A DNA stretch of 64,000 nt. Origin: an uncultured delta proteobacterium. Its GTDB lineage: Bacteria; Desulfobacterota; RBG-13-43-22. The notes below the pieces were generated by a model. It had not been told where the DNA came from. It made no database searches and saw nothing but the letters and a program-made list of their open reading frames with translations. Location: the NCBI GenBank assembly GCA_963802945.1, contig CAWDKY010000029.1:160001-224000 (forward strand), written 5' to 3'. Positions 28,410 through 44,674 of the stretch are shown here, in pieces (position 1 is the first letter of the stretch; every line of letters begins with the position of its first letter). Both the position numbers and the translations under genes were made by a program.

Positions 28410-29298
28410 TCAGCCTTCAGAATTCGGGGGTCGGAGAGGGTCTTGTTGAGGTCGATAACGGGTGATAAACCATTTCAGTTGGCGGCAGACACCGCGGATC
28501 ATGCGGACTTCATTGGAATAGAGGCCTATCCGGGAAAAAAAGCGGCGCAGGCTCATCATCCAGAGTTCAGGATTTTGTTTGTCCAAAAAGTCCATCATCT
28601 GAAGGGCTTCCGATAGGTGCCGGTACATCCCTTCCAGCTCAAAGGAAGAGGCCAAGGTATTTCGGATTTCGGATTTCGGATTTCGGATTGCGGAATTTGA
28701 GGAATCGAAAGACGAGGGTTCAAAGGTTTGGGGTGACAGGAAGGTTGGATTTTTCATCATTCCGCAATCCGCCAATCCGACAATCCGAAATGGTTCATGC
28801 TGGTGGGCTAAAAAAATTTCATAACTCATGAATCAAAACAGCCTGAGCCAGATTAAGGGAACCGGCTGAAGCTGTGGGGATGTGGACCGTACTATGGCAG
28901 AATCGCAGTTCTTCGTTACTGAGTCCCCGGTTTTCAGGGCCGAAGAGGACGGCAATACGATTCTGACGGCCCAGGGATCGAATTTTTTCGGCTGCCTGGG
29001 CTGGGTCGATAACCTCTTTCCGTTGGCCCCCCAAACGGGCCGTGGTTCCCACGATGTAGTTAAAAGGGGCCAGGGCCTCGGCCAGTGAGGCATAGGTTTC
29101 CATTTTTTCCAGGAGCCCTCGGGCCACATGCGTGGAAAGTTTGGTCATTCGCTCCCAGTCGGTATCCTCGGGGTTGACCAGAATGATATGGGACAAGCCC
29201 ATATTCCAGGCTGCACGGGCCGAGGCCCCGATATTTTCCGCAAACCGGGGTTGATGGAGGACCAGGGTGATGTGGTCGAATAGAGCGTTTTCAGGCAT
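28410..29298 (-). CDS. trmJ: TrmJ/LasT-family tRNA methyltransferase (frameshift near 28825; repeat insertion in linker)
   Basis: 'ENIGASARA', 'FGPENRGLSNEEL', 'SLNLAQAV', then 'YEIF...LEGMYRHL...LRRFFSR...EVRMIRGVCRQ'. Confidence 0.85.
28659..28791. repeat. Inverted heptamer tandem repeats inside trmJ
   Basis: (ATTTCGG)x4 ATTGCGGAAT ... ATTCCGCAATCCGCCAATCCGACAATCCGAAAT. Confidence 0.85.
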
Positions 29299-29317: not shown

Positions 29318-29539
29318 GAATTCAGAATCCAGAAGTCAGTGTAGTGTCTCAATAACAGATTTACAATAGTCTTAAGCTGTCATTCCTGCGAAAGCAGGAA
29401 TCCAGGTTGAAAATACTGGATTCCGGATCAAGTCGGGAATGACAACGTTGTAAAGCGAATACTGTAACAGTACACTAACAGTCAGAATTCAGAATAAGAA
29501 AAAACAAAAAAATTTATGTTGATTCTGGATTCTGAATTC
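29318..29539. repeat. Inverted CAGAAT(T/C) heptamer arms with no ORF between them
   Basis: GAATTCAGAATCCAGAA (29318-29334) is the perfect reverse complement of 29523-29539. Confidence 0.8.
29342..29477. mobile_element. MITE-like element containing a palindromic repeat
   Basis: Ends TAGTGT...TTTACAA / TTGTAAA...ACACTA; inner TGTCATTCC...GGAATGACA palindrome (29378-29444); interrupts the heptamer tract. Confidence 0.65.
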
Positions 29540-31767
29540 CATATTTTTTCTTATCACAAAACTGAGACCAACACAATCAGCCATTATGGTTTAAACGCAC
29601 GAATTATTTTACTCTTGATCGGCTTGGTTTTCATGCTTTTCGTGGCCGGATGCACGAAAGGAACCTGGAACAACCCCTATCCGCTTCAGGAACGGGGCCG
29701 TAATATTCTCTACTCGGCTTTTTCCGAGCGCCCCAAACATCTCGACCCGGTACAGTCTTACAGCGAGGATGAGGCGGCCTTCAATGCCCAGATCTACGAG
29801 CCTCCTTTGCAGTACCACTTTTTTAAACGGCCCTATACCCTGGTTCCAGCTACCGCCGAAGAAGTTCCACGTCCCCAATTATTTGATGCCGCCGGGCATC
29901 GACTCCCGGATGATGCCGAAGCGGGTAGGGTGGCTTACAGTCTGTACGAGATCAGAATTCGCCCCGGGATCCGTTTTCAACCTCATCCCGCTTTTGCCCG
30001 GGATGCAGCCGGCAATCTGCTTTATCACCATCTGAAGCCCGTTGACCTGAATCCTATCCATACCCTCTCGGACTTCAAATATCAGGGCACCCGCGAACTG
30101 ATGGCCGCTGATTATGTTTACCAGATCAAGCGGCTCGCTCACCCGAGACTGCAATCCCCGATCTTCGGTCTCATGAGTGATTACATCGTGGGACTCAAGG
30201 CCTATGCCGCCCTGCTTAGAAAAGCCAATCAAGAGCTGTTAAAGGCCGGGAAAGGCAATGCCTATCTGGATCTTGACCGGTTTTCTCTGGAAGGGGCAAC
30301 GGTTGTGGATCGATACACCTACCGGGTGAAACTCAAGGGAAAATATCCCCAGTTCGTTTACTGGCTGACCATGCCTTTTTTCGCCCCGGTTCCTCAAGAA
30401 GTGGACCGCTTCTTTTCCCAACCGGGCATGGCGGAAAAAAATTTGACTTTGGATTGGTACCCGGTGGGCACCGGTCCCTATATGCTGACCAAGAATAACC
30501 CCAACCGGCAGATGGTTCTGGAACGTAATCCCTATTTCCACGAAGAGGCCTATCCTTCCGAAGGAGAACAAGGGGACCAAGAGGCGGGGCTTCTGACTGA
30601 TGCGGGCCAGCCTTTGCCCTTTATCGACAAAGCGGTATTCAGTTTGGAGAAGGAAGGAATCCCTTACTGGAACAAGTTCCTGCAAGGTTATTACGACGCT
30701 TCCGGGATCAGTTCCGACAGCTTTGACCAGGCGATCCAGATCTCCAGCACCGGGGATATCGCCCTTACCGATAAAATGAAGGAAAAAGGGATACACCTTT
30801 CCACCTCGGTGGCCCCTACCTACCTTCTATATGGGATTCAATATGTTGGATCCGGTGGTCGGAGGGCATTCGGAGCGGGCCCGCAAATTGCGTCTGGCTA
30901 TTTCCATTGCGGTGGATTATGAGGAGTACATCAGCATCTTCGCCAACGGCCGCGGTATTGCGGCCCAGGGCCCGATTCCGCCGGACATTTTCGGCAACAG
31001 GTCTGGTAAGGATGGGATCAATCCCTATGTGTATGACTGGGTAAACGGCCACCCTAAGCGTAAATCCATAGAGGCGGCTAAAAAATTGTTGGCCGAGGCC
31101 GGTTATCCGGATGGGATCGATAAGGAAAACGGTAAGCCTTTGGTGCTTAACTTCGATGTCACCGCCCACGGCCCTGACGACAAGGCGCACCTTGATTGGT
31201 ATCGAAAACAGTTCAGCAAACTCAATCTTCAACTGGTGGTCCGGGCTACGGATTACAACCGATTTCAGGACAAAATCCGAAAGGGTAATGCCCAGATCTT
31301 CAACTGGGGATGGAACGCCGATTATCCTGACCCAGAGAATTTCCTTTTCCTACTGCATGGACCCCAGAGTCATGTCAAAAGCCAGGGAGAAAACTCGGCC
31401 AATTACGCTAACCCTGAGTACGACCGGCTGTATGAGAAAATGAAAAACATGGAATAACGGGCCGAGTCGCCAGGCTATCATCGATCAGATGATCGAAATT
31501 GCCCGCCATGACGCCCCGTGGCTGTGGGGCTTTCACCCCAAGGAATACCGACTTTATCATTCTTGGATGCTCAACCAGAAACCGAATAAGATGGCGCGCA
31601 ACGGGCTTAAGTACCAGCGCATCGATGCGGGGATGCGGGAACAGAAACGGGCCGAATGGAACCGGCCGGTGCTCTGGCCGATGTTTCTGGTCCTGGCCGT
31701 GTTGGTGGTCACTGCCCTGCCGGCGGTTATTGCCTTTCGTCGCCGGGAAAGGAAATCGGCCCTCTGA
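29516..31767 (+). CDS. Peptide/nickel ABC transporter substrate-binding lipoprotein (two frameshifts; start uncertain)
   Basis: Lipobox VAGC, 'PKHLDP', 'PVGTGPY', 'GWNADYPDPENF'; pieces 29516-30922, 30831-31457, 31489-31767. Confidence 0.85.
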
Positions 31768-32744
31768 TGCTGAACTATATCATCCGACGTGTACTCTATG
31801 CCCTTCCGATCCTGATCGGGGTCAATATCATCACCTTCAGTCTGTTTTTTGTGGTCAATACCCCGGATGACATGGCCCGCATCCATTTGGGGGTGAAGCG
31901 GGTGACGCCGGAAGCCGTTGCCAAATGGAAACAGGAGCGGGGTTACGACAAGCCGCTTTTGTTCAGTGCTTCCGCTCCGGGTACGGCCAAGGTGACCGAT
32001 ACCATTTTCTTTGAGAAATCGATCAAGCTGTTCGCCTTTCGATTCGGCCCGGCCGACGACGGACGCGATATCGCCTATGAGATCAGGAACCGTATGGGAC
32101 CAAGCCTGGCTATCGCCCTGCCAGTATTTCTCCTGGGCCTCATCTGCTATATCTCTTTCGCCCTGATGATGGCCTTTTTTCGGGCCACCTACTTGGATTT
32201 CTGGGGGGTGGTATTGTGCGTGGCCATGATGTCCATTTCCAGTCTGTTTTATATCATCGGCGGTCAATATCTGTTGAGCAAACTCTGGAATCTGGTGCCG
32301 ATTTCCGGGTTCGGCACAGGGATCATGGCCGCCAAATTTCTGATTCTGCCGGTGCTGGTCGGGGTGGTGAGCGGAATCGGCTCCGGCGCCCGCTGGTATC
32401 GCACCATCTTTCTTGAAGAGATCGGCAAGGATTATGTGCGCACCGCCAGGGCCAAGGGTCTGTCGGAATGGCGGGTGCTGTACAAGCATGTCCTGCAAAA
32501 CGCCATGATCCCCATCCTGACCGGGGCGGTAGTGGTCATTCCGGTTCTTTTTATGGGCAGCCTGATCACCGAATCTTTTTTCGGCATCCCAGGGCTCGGC
32601 AGTTATACCATCGATGCCATCAACTCTCAGGATTTTTCGGTGGTCCGGGCCATGGTTTTCCTGGGCTCGGTGCTTTACATCATCGGACTTATTTTGACCG
32701 ACATTTCTTATACCTTAGTTGATCCGAGGATTCGATTAGAATGA
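31767..32744 (+). CDS. Peptide ABC transporter permease (OppB/DppB-like)
   Basis: 'MLNYIIRR', EAA motif 'DYVRTARAKGL', 'DISYTLVDPRIR'. Confidence 0.92.
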   Translation: MLNYIIRRVLYALPILIGVNIITFSLFFVVNTPDDMARIHLGVKRVTPEAVAKWKQERGYDKPLLFSASAPGTAKVTDTIFFEKSIKLFAFRFGPADDGRDIAYEIRNRMGPSLAIALPVFLLGLICYISFALMMAFFRATYLDFWGVVLCVAMMSISSLFYIIGGQYLLSKLWNLVPISGFGTGIMAAKFLILPVLVGVVSGIGSGARWYRTIFLEEIGKDYVRTARAKGLSEWRVLYKHVLQNAMIPILTGAVVVIPVLFMGSLITESFFGIPGLGSYTIDAINSQDFSVVRAMVFLGSVLYIIGLILTDISYTLVDPRIRLE

Positions 32745-33157
32745 AGGATAAAAGAGCAGAATCTAGAATTCAGGAGTCAGAATCCAGAATGAAAAGGCAA
32801 CCGTCAAAAAACTTTAGAGACTTAATTGTCTGGCAAAAGGCCCATCAATTTGTTTTGGCCGTTTACCAGTACAGTGAATTATTTCCCAAGAATGAGATTT
32901 ACGGATTGACATCACAAACAAGAAGGGCTGCGGTTTCGATCCCTGCGAATATTGTAGAGGGTTTCAAGAAGAAAACAAAACCAGATAAAGTGAGATATTT
33001 CAACATAGCCCAAGGGTCACTTGAAGAATGCCGCTATTATTTAATTTTAGCCCAAGACCTTAATTATGGGGATGCCTTACATCTCATAACAAAACTTGAA
33101 GAAGTGAGCAAATTATTGGAATCCTACATTTCTTCTATTCTGGATTCTGACTCCTGA
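32741..33157 (+). CDS. Four-helix-bundle protein (23S rRNA-IVP / bAvd-like); probable true start 32789
   Basis: 'FRDLIVWQKAH', 'FPKNEIYGLTSQTRRAAVSIPANIVEG', 'IAQGSLEECRYYL'. Confidence 0.92.
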   Translation: MKDKRAESRIQESESRMKRQPSKNFRDLIVWQKAHQFVLAVYQYSELFPKNEIYGLTSQTRRAAVSIPANIVEGFKKKTKPDKVRYFNIAQGSLEECRYYLILAQDLNYGDALHLITKLEEVSKLLESYISSILDSDS

Positions 33158-33168
33158 CTTCTGGATTC
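32757..33168. repeat. Inverted heptamer-repeat arms delimiting the four-helix-bundle gene
   Basis: TCAGGAGTCAGAATCCAGAAT (32770-32790) and ATTCTGGATTCTGACTCCTGA (33137-33157) are a 21-bp perfect inverted repeat within 7-mer tracts. Confidence 0.88.
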
Positions 33169-33173
33169 GATTT

Positions 33174-34649
33174 ATGGTCTTTTCATTCAAACCCATCATA
33201 CTCTGGACTGATGCTCTGATTGCTGTTTTGATTTTGGCCGGATTGACTTACGGCTGGACGGTATTGAGACACGAACACTTGCGGGCCCCTTGGAAACGGG
33301 TAGTCCGAAACGCAAGCGGCTTGGTGTCCATGATCGTACTGGCCGTGTTTCTGGTGATCGGTTTGCTCGATACCCTGCATTTCCGCCCGGCTATGGAAAC
33401 CCCAAAAAACGGCGAGAAAGCTTATGCGGTTGAGGTCTTAAGCCTTTTGGATGTGATAGTCGGCCGCTTAAGGCAGAATACCGAAAAGACTTATTCCGCC
33501 CCTTTGGCCACCCATCTTTTTTCCAGAGAAACCGTTGAGCTTCCCGACGGCCGGCAGGTGCGGACCTTTCCCCGCCTGGTTTACGGTGGGGCCCATCTGA
33601 AAAATCCCGATCAGGACAAGGGTAGCGATATCGCCAAACGGGGGGCCTTCGGTTTAATCCTGGCCCTGGTGTTATGGTGCCTGGCCGCGTGTGTTTTGCT
33701 TGGGATTCTTGCCCGCCGTCGAAAAATCGGATTGGCCTCATGCCTCAAGGGCGTATTCCGCGGTCAAGAGGAAATCCCCTGGAACGCCGTCTTATGGACC
33801 GTGCTGGGGCTTTTTCTATTGGCTGTGCCCACAACAGTTCTCAGCCTCAAGTATCATGTTTTCGGCACCGACAAGGTGGGGCAAGATGTGCTCTATTTGG
33901 CCTTGAAGAGTATTCGTACCGGGTTGGTCATCGGCACCCTGACCACCCTGGTGATGTTACCCTTTGCGGTTTTGCTCGGGATCATGGCCGGGTATTTCCA
34001 GGGCTGGATTGACGATATCATCCAGTACATCTACACCACCCTGAATTCCATTCCTGCCGTGCTATTGATCGCCGCCGCTGTTTTGATGATCCAGGTTTAC
34101 ATGGACAGCCACCCCGAACTGTTTGAAACCGCCAGCGCCCGGGCCGACCTGCGCCTGTTGTTTTTGTGCCTCATTCTCGGTGTCACCAGTTGGACCGGAC
34201 TGTGCCGCCTGATGCGAGGGGAATCGTTAAAGCTCCGGGAGATGGAATACATACAGGCCGCGCAGGCCTTCGGCGTTTCCGACTTCAAGATCATCATTCG
34301 ACATATCCTGCCCAACGTCATGCACATCGTGCTGATCGCCATCGTCATGGATTTTTCCGGTCTGGTGCTGGCCGAGGCCGTATTGTCCTATGTGGGTGTC
34401 GGCGTCGATCCAACAATGATCAGTTTCGGTACTATGATCAACAGTGCCCGTCTGGAAATGGCCAGGGAGCCGATGGTCTGGTGGTCTCTGTCCGCCGCAT
34501 TCGGCTTTATGTTCCTGCTGGTGTTGTTTGCCAATCTGTTTTCGGACGCTGTGCGGGACGCCTTTGACCCGAGGGTCCAAACTAGGGCCGTACGACTCCA
34601 GCTCTTTAGGAGACGACCTAAACTCATGGAGAAAGAGACGCATCTATGA
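33174..34649 (+). CDS. Peptide ABC transporter permease (OppC/DppC-like)
   Basis: 'HVFGTDKVGQD', 'EYIQAAQAFG', 'DAVRDAFDPR'. Confidence 0.92.
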   Translation: MVFSFKPIILWTDALIAVLILAGLTYGWTVLRHEHLRAPWKRVVRNASGLVSMIVLAVFLVIGLLDTLHFRPAMETPKNGEKAYAVEVLSLLDVIVGRLRQNTEKTYSAPLATHLFSRETVELPDGRQVRTFPRLVYGGAHLKNPDQDKGSDIAKRGAFGLILALVLWCLAACVLLGILARRRKIGLASCLKGVFRGQEEIPWNAVLWTVLGLFLLAVPTTVLSLKYHVFGTDKVGQDVLYLALKSIRTGLVIGTLTTLVMLPFAVLLGIMAGYFQGWIDDIIQYIYTTLNSIPAVLLIAAAVLMIQVYMDSHPELFETASARADLRLLFLCLILGVTSWTGLCRLMRGESLKLREMEYIQAAQAFGVSDFKIIIRHILPNVMHIVLIAIVMDFSGLVLAEAVLSYVGVGVDPTMISFGTMINSARLEMAREPMVWWSLSAAFGFMFLLVLFANLFSDAVRDAFDPRVQTRAVRLQLFRRRPKLMEKETHL

Positions 34650-36706
34650 CCGCGCCGTTACTTAAAATCGATCACCTGATCACCCGGTTGATCACGGACA
34701 ACGGTGTGGTTCGGGCCGTGGACGGCCTGTCGCTGTCCATTAATCCAGGGGAGACCTTCGCCCTGCTGGGCGAATCGGGTTGCGGCAAGTCCATGACCGC
34801 TCTTTCCATTATGCGTCTTTTGCCTGAGGCAGGCCTTATCCTTGACGGCAGCATTCATTTGAACGGCCGTGATCTTTTAACCCTGTCGGAATTGGAAATG
34901 CGTAACGTCCGAGGCAGACGGATCGGTATGATTTTCCAGGAGCCGATGCTGAGCCTGAATCCGGTCATGACTATCGGGAACCAGGTGGCGGAAATTCTCA
35001 TTCAACACCTCAAACTGCCGGGCCAGGAGGCCATGAAACGCGCTATGGCCATGCTCGAGGCGGTGGGAATTCCCGATGCGGCCCGACGCAGCGGCTATTA
35101 TCCCTTCCAATTTTCCGGAGGCATGAAACAGCGGGTGATGATCGCTATGGCCTTGGCCTGTGAGCCAGCCCTTTTGATCGCCGATGAACCCACTACGGCC
35201 CTGGATGTTACGATTCAAGCCCAGGTCCTCGATTTGTTGCGGCAAATGCAAAAGCGCAGCCGCATGTCGATATTGCTTATCACCCATGATCTTGGGGTGG
35301 TTTCGGAAATGGCCCACCAGGTGGCGGTGATGTATGCCGGCGAGGTGGTGGAAACGGCCGACCGCAAGCGTTTCTTCGACAGCCCGGCCCATCCTTATTC
35401 AAGAAAACTCTTTGAATCTCTGCCCATGCGGAATAAGCGTGGCCGGGCCTTGGCCATGATCAAAGGCAGCGTACCTCCCCTTACCCAAGAATTTTCAGGC
35501 TGTCGCTTTGTAGAACGTTGCGATTTTGGTTGGGATCGTTGTCTTTATCAGGTGCCTCGCTGGAACGAATGGAACCCGGGTCGCTTTGTGAGATGCCATC
35601 TTTATGATGCGGAGGTGAGGGATGAGGGACGAGGGACGAGAGATGAATTTAAGCTCGGACAAGGCCATATTGCTTCAAAAGGCCAAGTTCCAAGCGAGGT
35701 TCTATTCCTCTAAATCGAGTTCAAACCTTCTGACAGTGGAAGATTTACGGATCCACTTTCCAATCCGTAAAGGTCTCCTGAAACGTACAGTGGGGTCCAT
35801 CAAGGCCGTGGACGGGGTATCCCTTTCGATTCCCTTCGGCAGGACCCTGGCCCTGGTGGGCGAATCCGGCTGCGGCAAAACTACTCTGGGCAAGGGTATC
35901 TTGCGCCTCATCCCTTTAACCGGCGGTTCTGTTCTGTTTCAAGGAAAAGATATTTCGTCACTGTCGTCCGCTGAACTAAGACCTTTGCGCCGGGAGTTTC
36001 AGTTCATCTTCCAAGACCCTTATGCCTCGCTTAATCCCCGCCTGCGAATTGCGGAAATCATCGAAGAGGGTATGGCCGCCCTGAGAATCGGTACCGGGGA
36101 AATGGAGATCGAATGGCGCGTATCGACAGCTTGCTTACGAGGTGGGTCTGTCTGGGGCGATCAAATTTCGTTATCCCCATGAGTTCTCGGGCGGGCAACG
36201 TCAGCGTATTGCCATCGCCCGCGTCCTGTCTGTGAACCCTAAACTCATCATTTGCGACGAGCCGACCAGTGCGCTGGATATCTCAGTACAAGCCCAGATC
36301 CTGAATTTGCTCAAAGAACTGCAAGACAGGCACGGCCTGGCCTATCTATTCATCACTCACAATATTTCCGTAGTCGAGTTTCTGGCCCATGAAGTGGCAG
36401 TGATGTATCTGGGGCGCATTGTCGAGCGGGGAACGGTGGATGAGATCCTGGACCATCCACAGCATCCTTATACCAGGGCGCTCCTGTCGGCCGTACCGGT
36501 CATAGATCCGGATACCCATCGGGAGGTGATTCGGCTTCAAGGGGACTTGCCGTCCCCGGCTGATCCCGCCGGCCGGCTGCCATTTCCATCCCCGTTGCCC
36601 CGAGGTCATGCCGAAATGCAAAGTGATCTATCCGGCCCAAAGCCGTTTCAACACCACCCATTCCGTCCACTGCCATCTATACGAGTCTTTTTATAAAGCC
36701 CTTTGA
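34646..36706 (+). CDS. Peptide ABC transporter ATP-binding protein(s), OppD+OppF, probably one fused gene with frameshifts
   Basis: Two Walker A motifs ([16 protein letters not shown]), FSGGMKQR and FSGGQRQR signatures, two oligo_HPY Cys tails; pieces 34646-35713, 35622-36182, 36142-36696. Confidence 0.85.
36584..36690 (+). repeat. 107-bp direct repeat copy 1 (3' end of ABC ATPase gene)
   Basis: 8 mismatches versus 37424-37530. Confidence 0.9.
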
Positions 36707-36721
36707 AGTTTATTTTCTTTC

Positions 36722-36750
36722 TTGACAAATGTAACCTTCTCGGTTACAAA
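36722..36750 (+). promoter_or_regulatory. sigma70 promoter with palindromic operator for higBA
   Basis: TTGACA-17-TACAAA; operator TGTAACC-N5-GGTTACA (36730-36748); ATG follows 6 nt after the -10 box, so likely leaderless. Confidence 0.75.
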
Positions 36751-36756
36751 TTAATT

Positions 36757-37035
36757 ATGATTAAATCTTTTAAGCATAACGGCCTTGAAGATTTTTTCTA
36801 TTCCGGAAAGAAGAAAGGCATAAGGCCTGAACATGCCGACCGACTTGTGATCATTCTTGATAGATTAAATGCTGCCAGTGAACTCAAAGATCTAAGTTAT
36901 CCTGGTTCCGACCTGCACAAGTTGACGGGAGACAAGAAAGGCCAATATGCAGTAAAAGTATCGGGAAACTGGAGAGTTTTTTTCGAATTTTTTAACGGTG
37001 ACGTTTATAGGGTTGATTACAATGATTATCACTGA
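36757..37035 (+). CDS. higB: HigB (RelE/ParE superfamily) toxin
   Basis: 'MIKSFKHNGL', 'LHKLTGD..GQYAVKVSGNWRVFF', 'YNDYH'. Confidence 0.92.
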   Translation: MIKSFKHNGLEDFFYSGKKKGIRPEHADRLVIILDRLNAASELKDLSYPGSDLHKLTGDKKGQYAVKVSGNWRVFFEFFNGDVYRVDYNDYH

Positions 37036-44511: not shown

Positions 44512-44674
44512 GATGCTGGATACTGGATAACCCCAAAACCGATATTAGATACTTGATAACCTAAAAAACTGAGATTGGATACTGGATAAAGATGAATCTC
44601 TGTATCGATTATCAAGAATCCAACATCCAGTATCCAGAATCCAGTATCGGCCGTTTGATCGAGCATCCAGTATC
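44512..44674. repeat. Inverted GGATACT / AGTATCC heptamer arms, no ORF
   Basis: GATGCTGGATACTGGATA...GGATACTGGATA facing ATCCAACATCCAGTATCCAGAATCCAGTATC...AGCATCCAGTATC. Confidence 0.8.

Follow-up and report, generated by a model that had tools for sequence, protein, structure and literature searches.

The stretch of DNA analyzed here (the window) comprises 64,000 nucleotides (nt) of contig CAWDKY010000029.1 from assembly GCA_963802945.1; the assembly is coded G000 and the contig C29. The element under study is a small gene of the IVP family which, together with the two inverted arrays of tandem heptamers that bracket it, forms a cassette in the spacer between an oppB-like and an oppC-like permease gene. 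The features of the locus, in window positions, are as follows.

31656..32744, + strand: oppB-like ABC permease, the upstream host gene (PF00528, 108 bits, and PF19300; from the list of open reading frames)
32757..32790, + strand: 5' arm of about five tandem heptamers, CAGAATC TAGAATT CAGGAGT CAGAATC CAGAATg (Tandem Repeats Finder [TRF] and inverted repeat)
32789..33157, + strand: IVP/four-helix-bundle gene, 122 amino acids (aa), intact (PF05635, 122.2 bits; TIGR02436, 115.4 bits)
33137..33168, + strand: 3' arm, the reverse complement of the 5' arm, ATTCTGG ATTCTGA CTCCTGA CTTCTGG ATTC (inverted repeat)
33174..34649, + strand: oppC-like ABC permease, the downstream host gene (PF00528, 89.3 bits)

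A single open reading frame (ORF) was found on the + strand between 32741 and 33175. It spans 32741..33157 and codes for 138 aa, with a likely start at the ATG at 32789 that gives the product of 122 aa. The alternative in-frame ATG at 32741 overlaps the oppB stop codon (TGA at 32742-32744, as ATGA), and the longer frame from this ATG is also open in the copies of two related genomes (G010 and G011) and closed in a third (G006). The product matched the Pfam family PF05635 (23S_rRNA_IVP) over profile positions 1 to 105 of 106, with a cut-off of 33.8 bits, and the NCBIfam family TIGR02436 ("four helix bundle protein"), with a cut-off of 24 bits. An earlier reading made from the sequence alone (the original prediction) had called the gene 23S-IVP/bAvd-like; the IVP assignment stood, and the bAvd assignment did not (PF22296, 25.3 bits with a cut-off of 40). 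The gene had also been described as AT-richer and as splitting an oppB-oppC pair, in agreement with a GC content of 0.38 in the cassette versus 0.54 to 0.57 in the flanks and with PF00528 genes on both sides. The C terminus of the oppB product (DPRIRLE, followed by the stop codon) was kept in 13 of 13 relatives. Arms and ORF fill the entire 429-nt spacer between oppB and oppC, leaving no room for a further gene, and the predicted lack of a transposase was thus confirmed for the spacer, a window-wide transposase scan not having been made.

The paired parts of the arms (32759-32790 and 33137-33168) are 32 nt long, lie 346 nt apart, and are complementary at 30 of 32 positions (94%). Both mismatches fall within the outer 11 nt, and the inner 21 nt make up the perfect 21-bp inverted repeat that had been noted within the degenerate 7-mer arrays. 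The 5' array (32757-32790) has a period of 7 and 4.9 copies of the unit CAGAATC according to TRF; it is purine-rich and includes AGGAG. The start codon at 32789 closes the last unit of this array (CAGAATG), while the stop codon (TGA, 33155-33157) lies inside the 3' arm, which encodes the last residues and the stop codon; both overlaps had been predicted and are seen in the sequence. The arm score was 26, compared to a mean of 7.7 (standard deviation, 0.9; maximum, 10) for 200 shuffles. The predicted RNA fold had a free energy of -134.6 kcal/mol (z = -6.3; 0 of 100 shuffles were as good), and its minimum free energy structure closes the arms around the ORF, consistent with the earlier suggestion that the arms could form a stem with the ORF as loop. 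In every detail, therefore, the observation of an IVP-family gene bracketed by inverted heptamer arrays was borne out. Scans for promoters and terminators found none on the + strand at the cassette, with counts equal to the shuffle expectation and no T-run terminator-like site at the arms, and Rfam gave zero matches in 32300-33600 at E values of up to 1. The only flanking direct repeat, of 10 bp (GGATTCGATT, at 32728-37 and 33163-72), was considered as a target-site duplication and rejected, because the left copy belongs to the coding sequence of oppB and the G010 copy does not keep the match.

The oppB-oppC junction was compared across 13 genomes of the same genus (G001 to G013), all of which carry the opp genes. 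The junctions contained the following.

G001: empty; the oppB stop and the oppC start overlap (ATAGTG)
G002: empty; plain 34-nt spacer
G012: empty hairpin of ATAGCTC/GAGCTAT units
G005 and G008: ATAGCTC/GAGCTAT arms whose loop carries a small palindromic repeat
G009, G013, G003, and G007: AGCT-type units and an AAGGTTY array
G010: intact cassette, encoding a protein 84% identical to that in G000
G011 and G006: cassette lacking its 3' part as far as the right arm

Four junction states were found: empty, occupied by gene-less hairpins of the AGCT- or AAGGTT-type families (seven genomes), intact, and 3'-deleted. In a tree built from the initial 820 nt of oppC, the different occupants were interleaved, with G006 (cassette) and G007 (other hairpins) as sisters (100/100), G011 and G012 as sisters (100/98), and G000 grouped with G005 (82/88); this is a tree of a single gene, and recombination of the flanks could blur its branching. 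Between G006 and G007, the swapped segment starts just past the stop codon of oppB and ends just short of the oppC ATG. The interleaved occupants and the exactness of the replaced segment indicate that the spacer was occupied and re-occupied several times. Fixation in all relatives would have counted against an insertion and was not the case among the 13 congeners; rather, empty junctions exist (G001 and G002) and the cassette comes and goes between oppB and oppC, which agrees with the mobile insertion originally proposed. The cassette is a discrete, horizontally acquired insertion sitting exactly in the oppB-oppC spacer.

The G000 assembly (4.37 Mb, 72 contigs, 100% complete by markers, 6.7% contamination) contained six PF05635 matches, and all five of the strong ones were bracketed by facing tandem arrays of 7- or 8-nt units, as follows.

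C29 (this locus): arm unit CAGAATC
C33: arm unit AGGATTCA
C14: arm unit of the AGGTTCA type; the N-terminal part of the gene is missing
C36: arm unit of the GATACTG type
C8: arm unit of the TCGAATA type

An additional IVP remnant detected by tblastn (C16:276616-276781) retained only the first and last codons of the gene, between CAGAAGC-type arms. This remnant and the 3'-deleted cassettes of G011 and G006 show that gene-less hairpins can arise from cassettes by deletion: as shown in relatives, the gene is lost over time by internal deletion, leaving gene-less heptamer hairpins. The sixth PF05635 match (C16:41197-41409, - strand; 38 bits, profile positions 8 to 73) lies inside a 249-aa ORF without flanking arrays and represents a different, longer architecture of the fold.

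Tandem arrays detected by TRF in G000 numbered 859 with period 7 and 355 with period 8, along with 247 with period 6 and 346 with period 9. A reverse-complement 10-mer was present within 3 kb of 199 of the 1,214 period-7/8 arrays, with a spacer of <100 nt in 104 of those, and a stricter pass over the genome yielded 67 hairpins. Among the 58 hairpins that were gene-less and not composed of AT only, 37 matched one of the five resident IVP genes in arm sequence. The CAGAATC family accounted for 11 gene-less hairpins in the genome, including one in the window (29318-29539). The other 21 hairpins were in part of AGTTCGG, AGCGATC, and TAGGCAA types, for which IVP genes were found only in sister species, and the rest comprised a TGGAGTA-type family without a gene found and a few ordinary palindromes. 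Gene-less hairpins showed no preference for a junction type (29/5/3 observed versus 25.9/5.7/5.4 expected, P = 0.46). The cargo found between facing arrays in G000 consisted of IVP genes, the one IVP remnant, rpmE, and a gene for a B12-binding domain. The last two genes more likely lie between two separate hairpin remnants. 

Three gene-less hairpins were located in the window itself.

28659..28791: (ATTTCGG)x5 facing CCGCAAT/CCGAAAT, with a loop of about 66 nt; a different family
29318..29539 (C29 189318-189539): CAGAATC family, 17-nt perfect arms and a 188-nt loop, just upstream of the oppA-like gene
44512..44641: GATACTG family, which is the arm family of the IVP gene on C36

The empty copies in the window had been interpreted as scars of this cassette. 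That interpretation may hold for 29318-29539, which alone shares the CAGAATC family, and does not hold for the other arrays, which belong mostly to ATTTCGG, GATACTG, and AGGATTCG families. A small palindromic repeat (GTCATTCC ... GGAATCC / GGAATGAC type) is present within the loop of 29318-29539 (29380-29450). The same repeat occurs in the oppB-oppC junctions of G005 and G008 and at C16:240270-240330, and a loose motif search over both strands of G000 gave 86 matches. The repeat appears to be a further miniature family that nests in the loops of heptamer hairpins.

Two further sets of loci were assembled. For the genus, 101 PF05635 places were found, of which 70 were taken (the 31 weakest or most truncated were left out) and combined with the four other G000 loci to give 72 cassettes. 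For the wider set, a contig scan with a three-sequence alignment supplied the best 80 of 427 relatives, from 600 candidate stretches. Loci with an arm score of at least 13 were counted as bracketed, and controls were made by displacing the right flank by 600 nt. Bracketing was found at 55 of the 72 genus cassettes and at 58 of the 80 wider-set loci, the latter compared to 1 of 70 displaced controls; 68 of the 80 wider-set loci exceeded the best of 20 shuffles. The best period among the 58 armed loci was 7 in 41, 8 in 16, and 10 in 1. The same type of cassette as at oppB-oppC was present at other loci in G011, G012, and G009, and proteins 68 to 75% identical to that of the cassette were found in metagenome-assembled genomes (MAGs) labeled Thermodesulfovibrionales, Nitrospirae, Verrucomicrobia, Betaproteobacteria, Okeania (Cyanobacteria), and Planctomycetota. 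Relatives at this level of identity carried CAGGAGY/CAGAATC arms in Nitrospirota, Verrucomicrobiota, Betaproteobacteria, and Cyanobacteria, between unrelated gene pairs. The cassette therefore occurs beyond this operon, with the same arm units held in other operons and other phyla. IVP genes were in places clustered, with three in 7 kb (G012:C118 1154-7855), three in 6 kb (G004:C18 179135-185215), pairs within 2 to 3 kb in G008:C6 (181088-183182 and 235797-238838), and five in 80 kb (G010:C31 56445-136905).

Neighbors of these genes were called crudely, as stop-to-stop ORFs of at least 110 aa. The upstream neighbor was on the same strand as the IVP gene at 64 of 71 loci and the downstream neighbor at 57 of 71; both flanks were co-oriented with the gene in 47 loci and both opposed in 2. 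A Pfam scan of 103 of the 138 neighbor ORFs identified ordinary, functionally paired genes, including pairs of the pilB-pilC type (five loci), dprA-topA, pmbA-tldD, methylmalonyl-CoA mutase-meaB, UDG-mutS, mlaE-mlaF, and sugar-nucleotide enzymes. No transposase, integrase, or reverse transcriptase was present among the 103 scanned ORFs. Arms ended a median of 30 nt before the first profile-matched codon and resumed a median of 30 nt after the last; with gaps this short there is no space for a promoter, and the ribosome-binding site falls in the arm. Cassettes thus sit in operon spacers, co-oriented with the host genes. The five loci of the pilB-pilC type (L038, L044, L050, L057, and L078) have the cassette between T2SSE (pilB-like) and T2SSF (pilC-like) genes, in MAGs labeled Pirellulaceae, Planctomycetaceae, Acidobacteriota, and Sulfuricella. 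This junction may be a favored target or may reflect old vertical inheritance in some groups.

Arms were compared pairwise among a pool of 101 intact, armed cassettes. An arm motif was shared by 68 to 97% of pairs with at least 60% protein identity and by 0 to 6% of pairs below 60%. Among pairs at 60 to 80% protein identity, four-fold degenerate sites were 0.28 to 0.30 identical, equal to pairs at 30 to 60% and hence saturated, while the consensus unit was 0.79 to 0.83 identical (background, 0.51 to 0.59) and the period differed in 6 of 317 pairs. The pairs are not independent, which inflates these counts but not the contrast. Since the unit is conserved where four-fold sites are saturated, its letters are kept with the protein clade beyond what pairing demands. 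Complementarity to the 5' arm was also higher for a cassette's own 3' arm than for the 3' arms of sister cassettes (mean, 19.8 versus 14.5; six clades with at least five members). In 60 of 70 cassettes, the own arm scored above the mean for foreign 3' arms of that clade. Each cassette actively maintains the complementarity of its two arms.

Mismatches in the stems of the 58 armed loci included G.U in 50 cases and A.C in 44, and repair or selection acting on DNA, or on both strands, fits this spectrum equally well. The 5' arm was purine-rich in 22 of 25 protein clusters, and Shine-Dalgarno-like 4-mers were present in the 5' arms of 44 of 101 cassettes, compared to 3 for the complement. Purine richness was considered as a polarity relative to the gene and dropped: the 5' arm of a hairpin reads identically on either strand, so the property belongs to the hairpin and not to the orientation of the gene. 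An asymmetry in stop codons (5' arms apparently open in every frame and TGA-rich 3' arms, with 52 versus 24 stop-free arms in 101 cassettes) was dropped as well, as it was not upheld per protein cluster (fewer stops in 10, more in 12, and equal numbers in 4).

The solved structures related in sequence to the cassette protein were 2gsc (E = 9e-18) and 2rld, with five chains each. Modeling of four copies of the protein gave a self-association score of 0.59, compared to 0.00 for the best control, with agreement between runs in at least 89% of contacts and a predicted local distance difference test (pLDDT) value of at least 81; a score of 0.59 was attained by 20 of 30 proteins whose solved structures are same-chain pairs and by 1 of 23 whose structures are single chains. 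The modeled interface would be head to tail, with residues ~19 to 60 against 76 to 91, as in a ring. Similar oligomers have already been solved (2gsc and 2rld), and the self-association pass may therefore only reflect likeness to them. Relative to the G010 copy, dN/dS was 0.06 at a dS of 1.4, indicating purifying selection. PADLOC anti-phage models matched 0 families at E values of up to 0.01.

Among known systems, the cassette most resembles the intervening sequences (IVSs) of rRNA genes, which carry an S23p/IVP ORF in Leptospira, Coxiella, and others and have a 28-bp stem that is cut in its middle by RNase III (accessible text of PMC4990558; Ralph and McClelland 1993 as cited there). On the basis of that text, both consist of a PF05635 ORF of lower GC content than the host within terminal inverted repeats, with a stem of about 28 to 32 bp and a size of about 430 nt; both lack a promoter, and the cassette probably rides on a host transcript as the rRNA IVSs do; and both have a sporadic distribution that suggests horizontal transfer by unknown means. 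In contrast to rRNA IVSs, the cassette is located in the spacer of an mRNA operon between PF00528 genes, not in helix 9, 25, or 45 of 23S/16S rRNA; its arms are tandem arrays of 7/8-nt units that are clade specific, a feature unmentioned in the accessible part of PMC4990558; and G000 also holds dozens of gene-less copies. Heptamer arrays have been described in Cyanobacteria, Beggiatoaceae, and Bacteroidetes as runs of two to six heptamers that are abundant, intergenic, and near start codons (PMC4679880; bioRxiv 10.1101/2022.06.06.494920). In the portions available, their patchy distribution across phyla is taken to suggest horizontal spread with "no mechanism evident" (PMC4679880), and an unidentified heptamer-binding protein is postulated (bioRxiv 10.1101/2022.06.06.494920). 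According to the same portions, those arrays are mostly direct and of one unit (TAACTGA; TTTTGAA) (PMC4679880; bioRxiv 10.1101/2022.06.06.494920), whereas the arrays described here face each other and enclose, now or formerly, an IVP gene. The terms "four helix" and "intervening" have 0 occurrences in PMC4679880. In the literature searched (mostly non-subscription journals, supplements excluded), no report was found of a connection, outside rRNA, between IVP genes and heptamer arrays that flank them.

Miniature inverted-repeat transposable elements (MITEs) are internally deleted, gene-less derivatives of autonomous parents that keep the inverted ends. The gene-carrying cassette likewise yields internally deleted, gene-less derivatives with inverted ends; unlike MITEs, it has no transposase and no target-site duplication, and its gene-less copies have no common loop sequence. 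As far as the available text shows, a similar arrangement is found in systems of repetitive extragenic palindromic (REP) sequence doublets (REPINs) and REP-associated tyrosine transposases (RAYTs), in which short palindromic repeats flank a single-copy gene and are also dispersed between genes as inverted doublets, with a separate repeat family for each gene clade (PMC3116915, PMC3337134). By the same sources, however, RAYTs are tyrosine (HUH; IS200/IS605-like) transposases, whereas the IVP is a 122-aa four-helix bundle, and single REP palindromes contrast with the tandem heptamer arrays found here, whose cassettes are horizontally mobile and often decayed. The accessory protein Avd of diversity-generating retroelements has a homologous four-helix-bundle fold and forms a ring-type oligomer that binds nucleic acid (PMC10053308, as far as available). 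It differs in that no reverse transcriptase (PF00078, in G000), template, or variable repeat accompanies the gene here, and Avd models scored below their cut-offs. The locus is best filed as an operon-borne, heptamer-armed IVP cassette of the IVS kind.

Taken together, the cassette is probably, if by no great measure, a promoter-less IVS-type element whose ring-forming IVP recognizes its own repeat units. The cassette would be transcribed by read-through from the opp operon, and its arms would pair in the transcript (or in single-stranded DNA) into a stem of at least 32 bp that hides the ribosome-binding site and the start codon. By analogy with rRNA IVSs, this stem is a predicted substrate of RNase III, for which G000 has one gene, on C11. 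Within a protein clade, conservation of the repeat unit far exceeds what neutral decay would leave, and on that ground the protein should bind its own units. An IVP oligomer would thus bind sequence specifically to heptamer units, both in its own arms and in those gene-less hairpins that belong to the same family, and binding may control the folding, processing, or copying of those hairpins. Candidate roles of such binding include autoregulation, protection of the cut ends of host mRNA, and DNA-level copying of the element. A broader proposal, that tandem 7/8-nt arrays are read in a sequence-specific manner by IVP proteins, with the subunits of a ring binding successive cognate units, much as the TRAP protein reads spaced triplets, is offered tentatively and is held to be possible rather than probable.

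Several observations weigh against this account. Transcription, cleavage, and binding of the protein to the repeats are inferred, and shared descent could inflate the correlation between unit and protein. No catalytic domain was recognized in the 138-aa ORF, for which Pfam gives PF05635 and bAvd only. A constraint acting on the sense RNA alone is not visible, since G.U mismatches were not in excess over A.C. The loops of gene-less hairpins in G000 were unlike one another, and amplification from one gene-less copy is therefore unsupported. Arrays of the AGTTCGG type were present in 14 of 14 genus genomes, with 28 to 385 pattern hits per genome (102 in G000) against 0 for a reversed-pattern control, and with similar forward and reverse counts. 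Among the PF05635 places taken (70 of 101), only those of G005, G008, and G009 included an AGTTCGG-type IVP gene, and the genome with the highest count (G006, 385) had none in this sample. The abundance of these arrays without a detected cognate IVP gene suggests hairpins that have no obvious need of a resident cognate gene. The structure of Avd is pentameric, and the number of units per arm peaked at 4 (31 cassettes), followed by 5 (17 cassettes); facing arrays in G000 had 2.5 to 5.5 copies, with none between 5.5 and 6.5. With the peak at 4 and not 5, the idea of one unit per pentamer subunit is only loosely supported.

An alternative that places the process at the level of DNA, as in REPIN-RAYT systems, is considered unlikely. 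Under this alternative, the IVP would bind its units in hairpin or cruciform DNA and promote copying or insertion, with gene-less hairpins as non-autonomous partners and RNA folding as incidental. It would accommodate the one or few genes flanked by repeats that also make up dozens of inverted doublets without a gene (37 of 58 matching the five IVP families), the specificity of repeat families for protein clades, the strand symmetry of mismatches (G.U 50 versus A.C 44), the indifference of gene-less hairpins to junction type (P = 0.46), and the matching of arms within a cassette, which could also be achieved by repair within a DNA hairpin. It is harder to reconcile with an IVP that has no nuclease or transposase fold in Pfam, with the finding of no target duplication at this locus or in the G010 copy, with hairpin loops that are mutually unrelated, and with the AGTTCGG arrays that abound in G000 and G006 without a detected cognate gene; co-orientation with host operons (47 versus 2) would need the extra assumption of selection for expression. 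The contrary simplification, in which the arms serve only to pair and RNase III excises a selfish ORF as in rRNA IVSs, makes the unit meaningless and merely inherited. Pairing alone would not be expected to preserve the periodicity or the letters of a stem, yet the period was 7 or 8 in 57 of 58 armed loci, unit identity was 0.79 to 0.83 despite four-fold saturation, the 5' arm was purine-rich in 22 of 25 clusters, and no G.U excess was seen. Even with a long and stable stem (fold z = -6.3), an RNase III encoded in G000, and a promoter-less cassette co-oriented with its host operon, this explanation appears quite improbable.

The two remaining explanations have very little probability. That the protein is a leftover Avd of a diversity-generating retroelement, or the RNA-binding partner of some reverse transcriptase, draws on the distant homology to PF22296 (25.3 bits) and NF033474 (27.8 bits), scores that lie under the respective cut-offs of 40 and 80. 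Zero PF00078 reverse transcriptases were found in G000, a 72-contig assembly with 100% marker completeness; the neighbors are opp genes; and none of the 103 neighbor ORFs scanned elsewhere was a reverse transcriptase, which brings this explanation close to refuted for G000. Chance, or an ordinary terminator or REP-like hairpin flanking an unrelated small gene, was rejected. Heptamer arrays are plentiful in G000 (859 of period 7 versus 247 of period 6), and rpmE and the B12-binding-domain gene also lie between arrays of the same family; however, the arm score of 26 exceeds the shuffle maximum of 10, 5 of 5 strong IVP genes in G000 and 58 of 80 loci elsewhere were bracketed versus 1 of 70 controls, the arms co-vary with the protein clade, and no T-run terminator-like site was found at the arms.

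Other features were observed around the opp genes of the window. The oppA-like binding-protein gene (region 29516-31767) is broken into at least two overlapping frames (29516..30922 and 30831..31457), and the oppF-like ATPase gene is split as well, with the Walker A motif in 35622..36182 and the LSGGQ signature in 36142..36696. These splits represent either frameshifts in a decaying operon or errors of the draft assembly. A TGAGGGA array of 4.4 copies (35616-35646) lies exactly at the end of the oppD-like and the start of the oppF-like gene, and both frames read through it; a degenerate facing partner alone is visible about 60 nt downstream, and the array may be a decayed arm absorbed into coding sequence. 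The 110-aa ORF at 36703-37035, directly 3' of the opp genes, is a candidate for a HigB/RelE-type toxin.

To our knowledge, PF05635/TIGR02436 is a very common bacterial family whose function has been unknown since its discovery in rRNA IVSs about 30 years ago. At the level of sequence, the locus and the series of related genomes tie together two orphans, the IVP family and the heptamer arrays. New here are the series of junction states in relatives, the saturation-controlled conservation of unit and period, the comparison of own with sister arms, and the negative findings for G.U bias, for a need of a cognate gene, and for reverse transcriptase. Cassettes lie inside housekeeping operons (opp, pilB-pilC, dprA-topA, and mutase-meaB), where a 32-bp stem may alter operon expression. 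If IVP proteins do bind their units, the family would have a function, the arrays would have an explanation, and rRNA IVSs could be seen as one of the niches filled by a general cassette; the family might also provide a set of small natural sequence-specific binders of nucleic acid. If the broader proposal is true, the "four helix bundle protein" genes, which number in the thousands, and the orphan heptamer arrays would make up the two halves of a single system, widespread and self-propagating. Such a protein-repeat system would cover the heptamer arrays of Cyanobacteria, Beggiatoaceae, Bacteroidetes, and Desulfobacterota, with rRNA IVSs as a special case and every protein clade having its own 7-letter "address."

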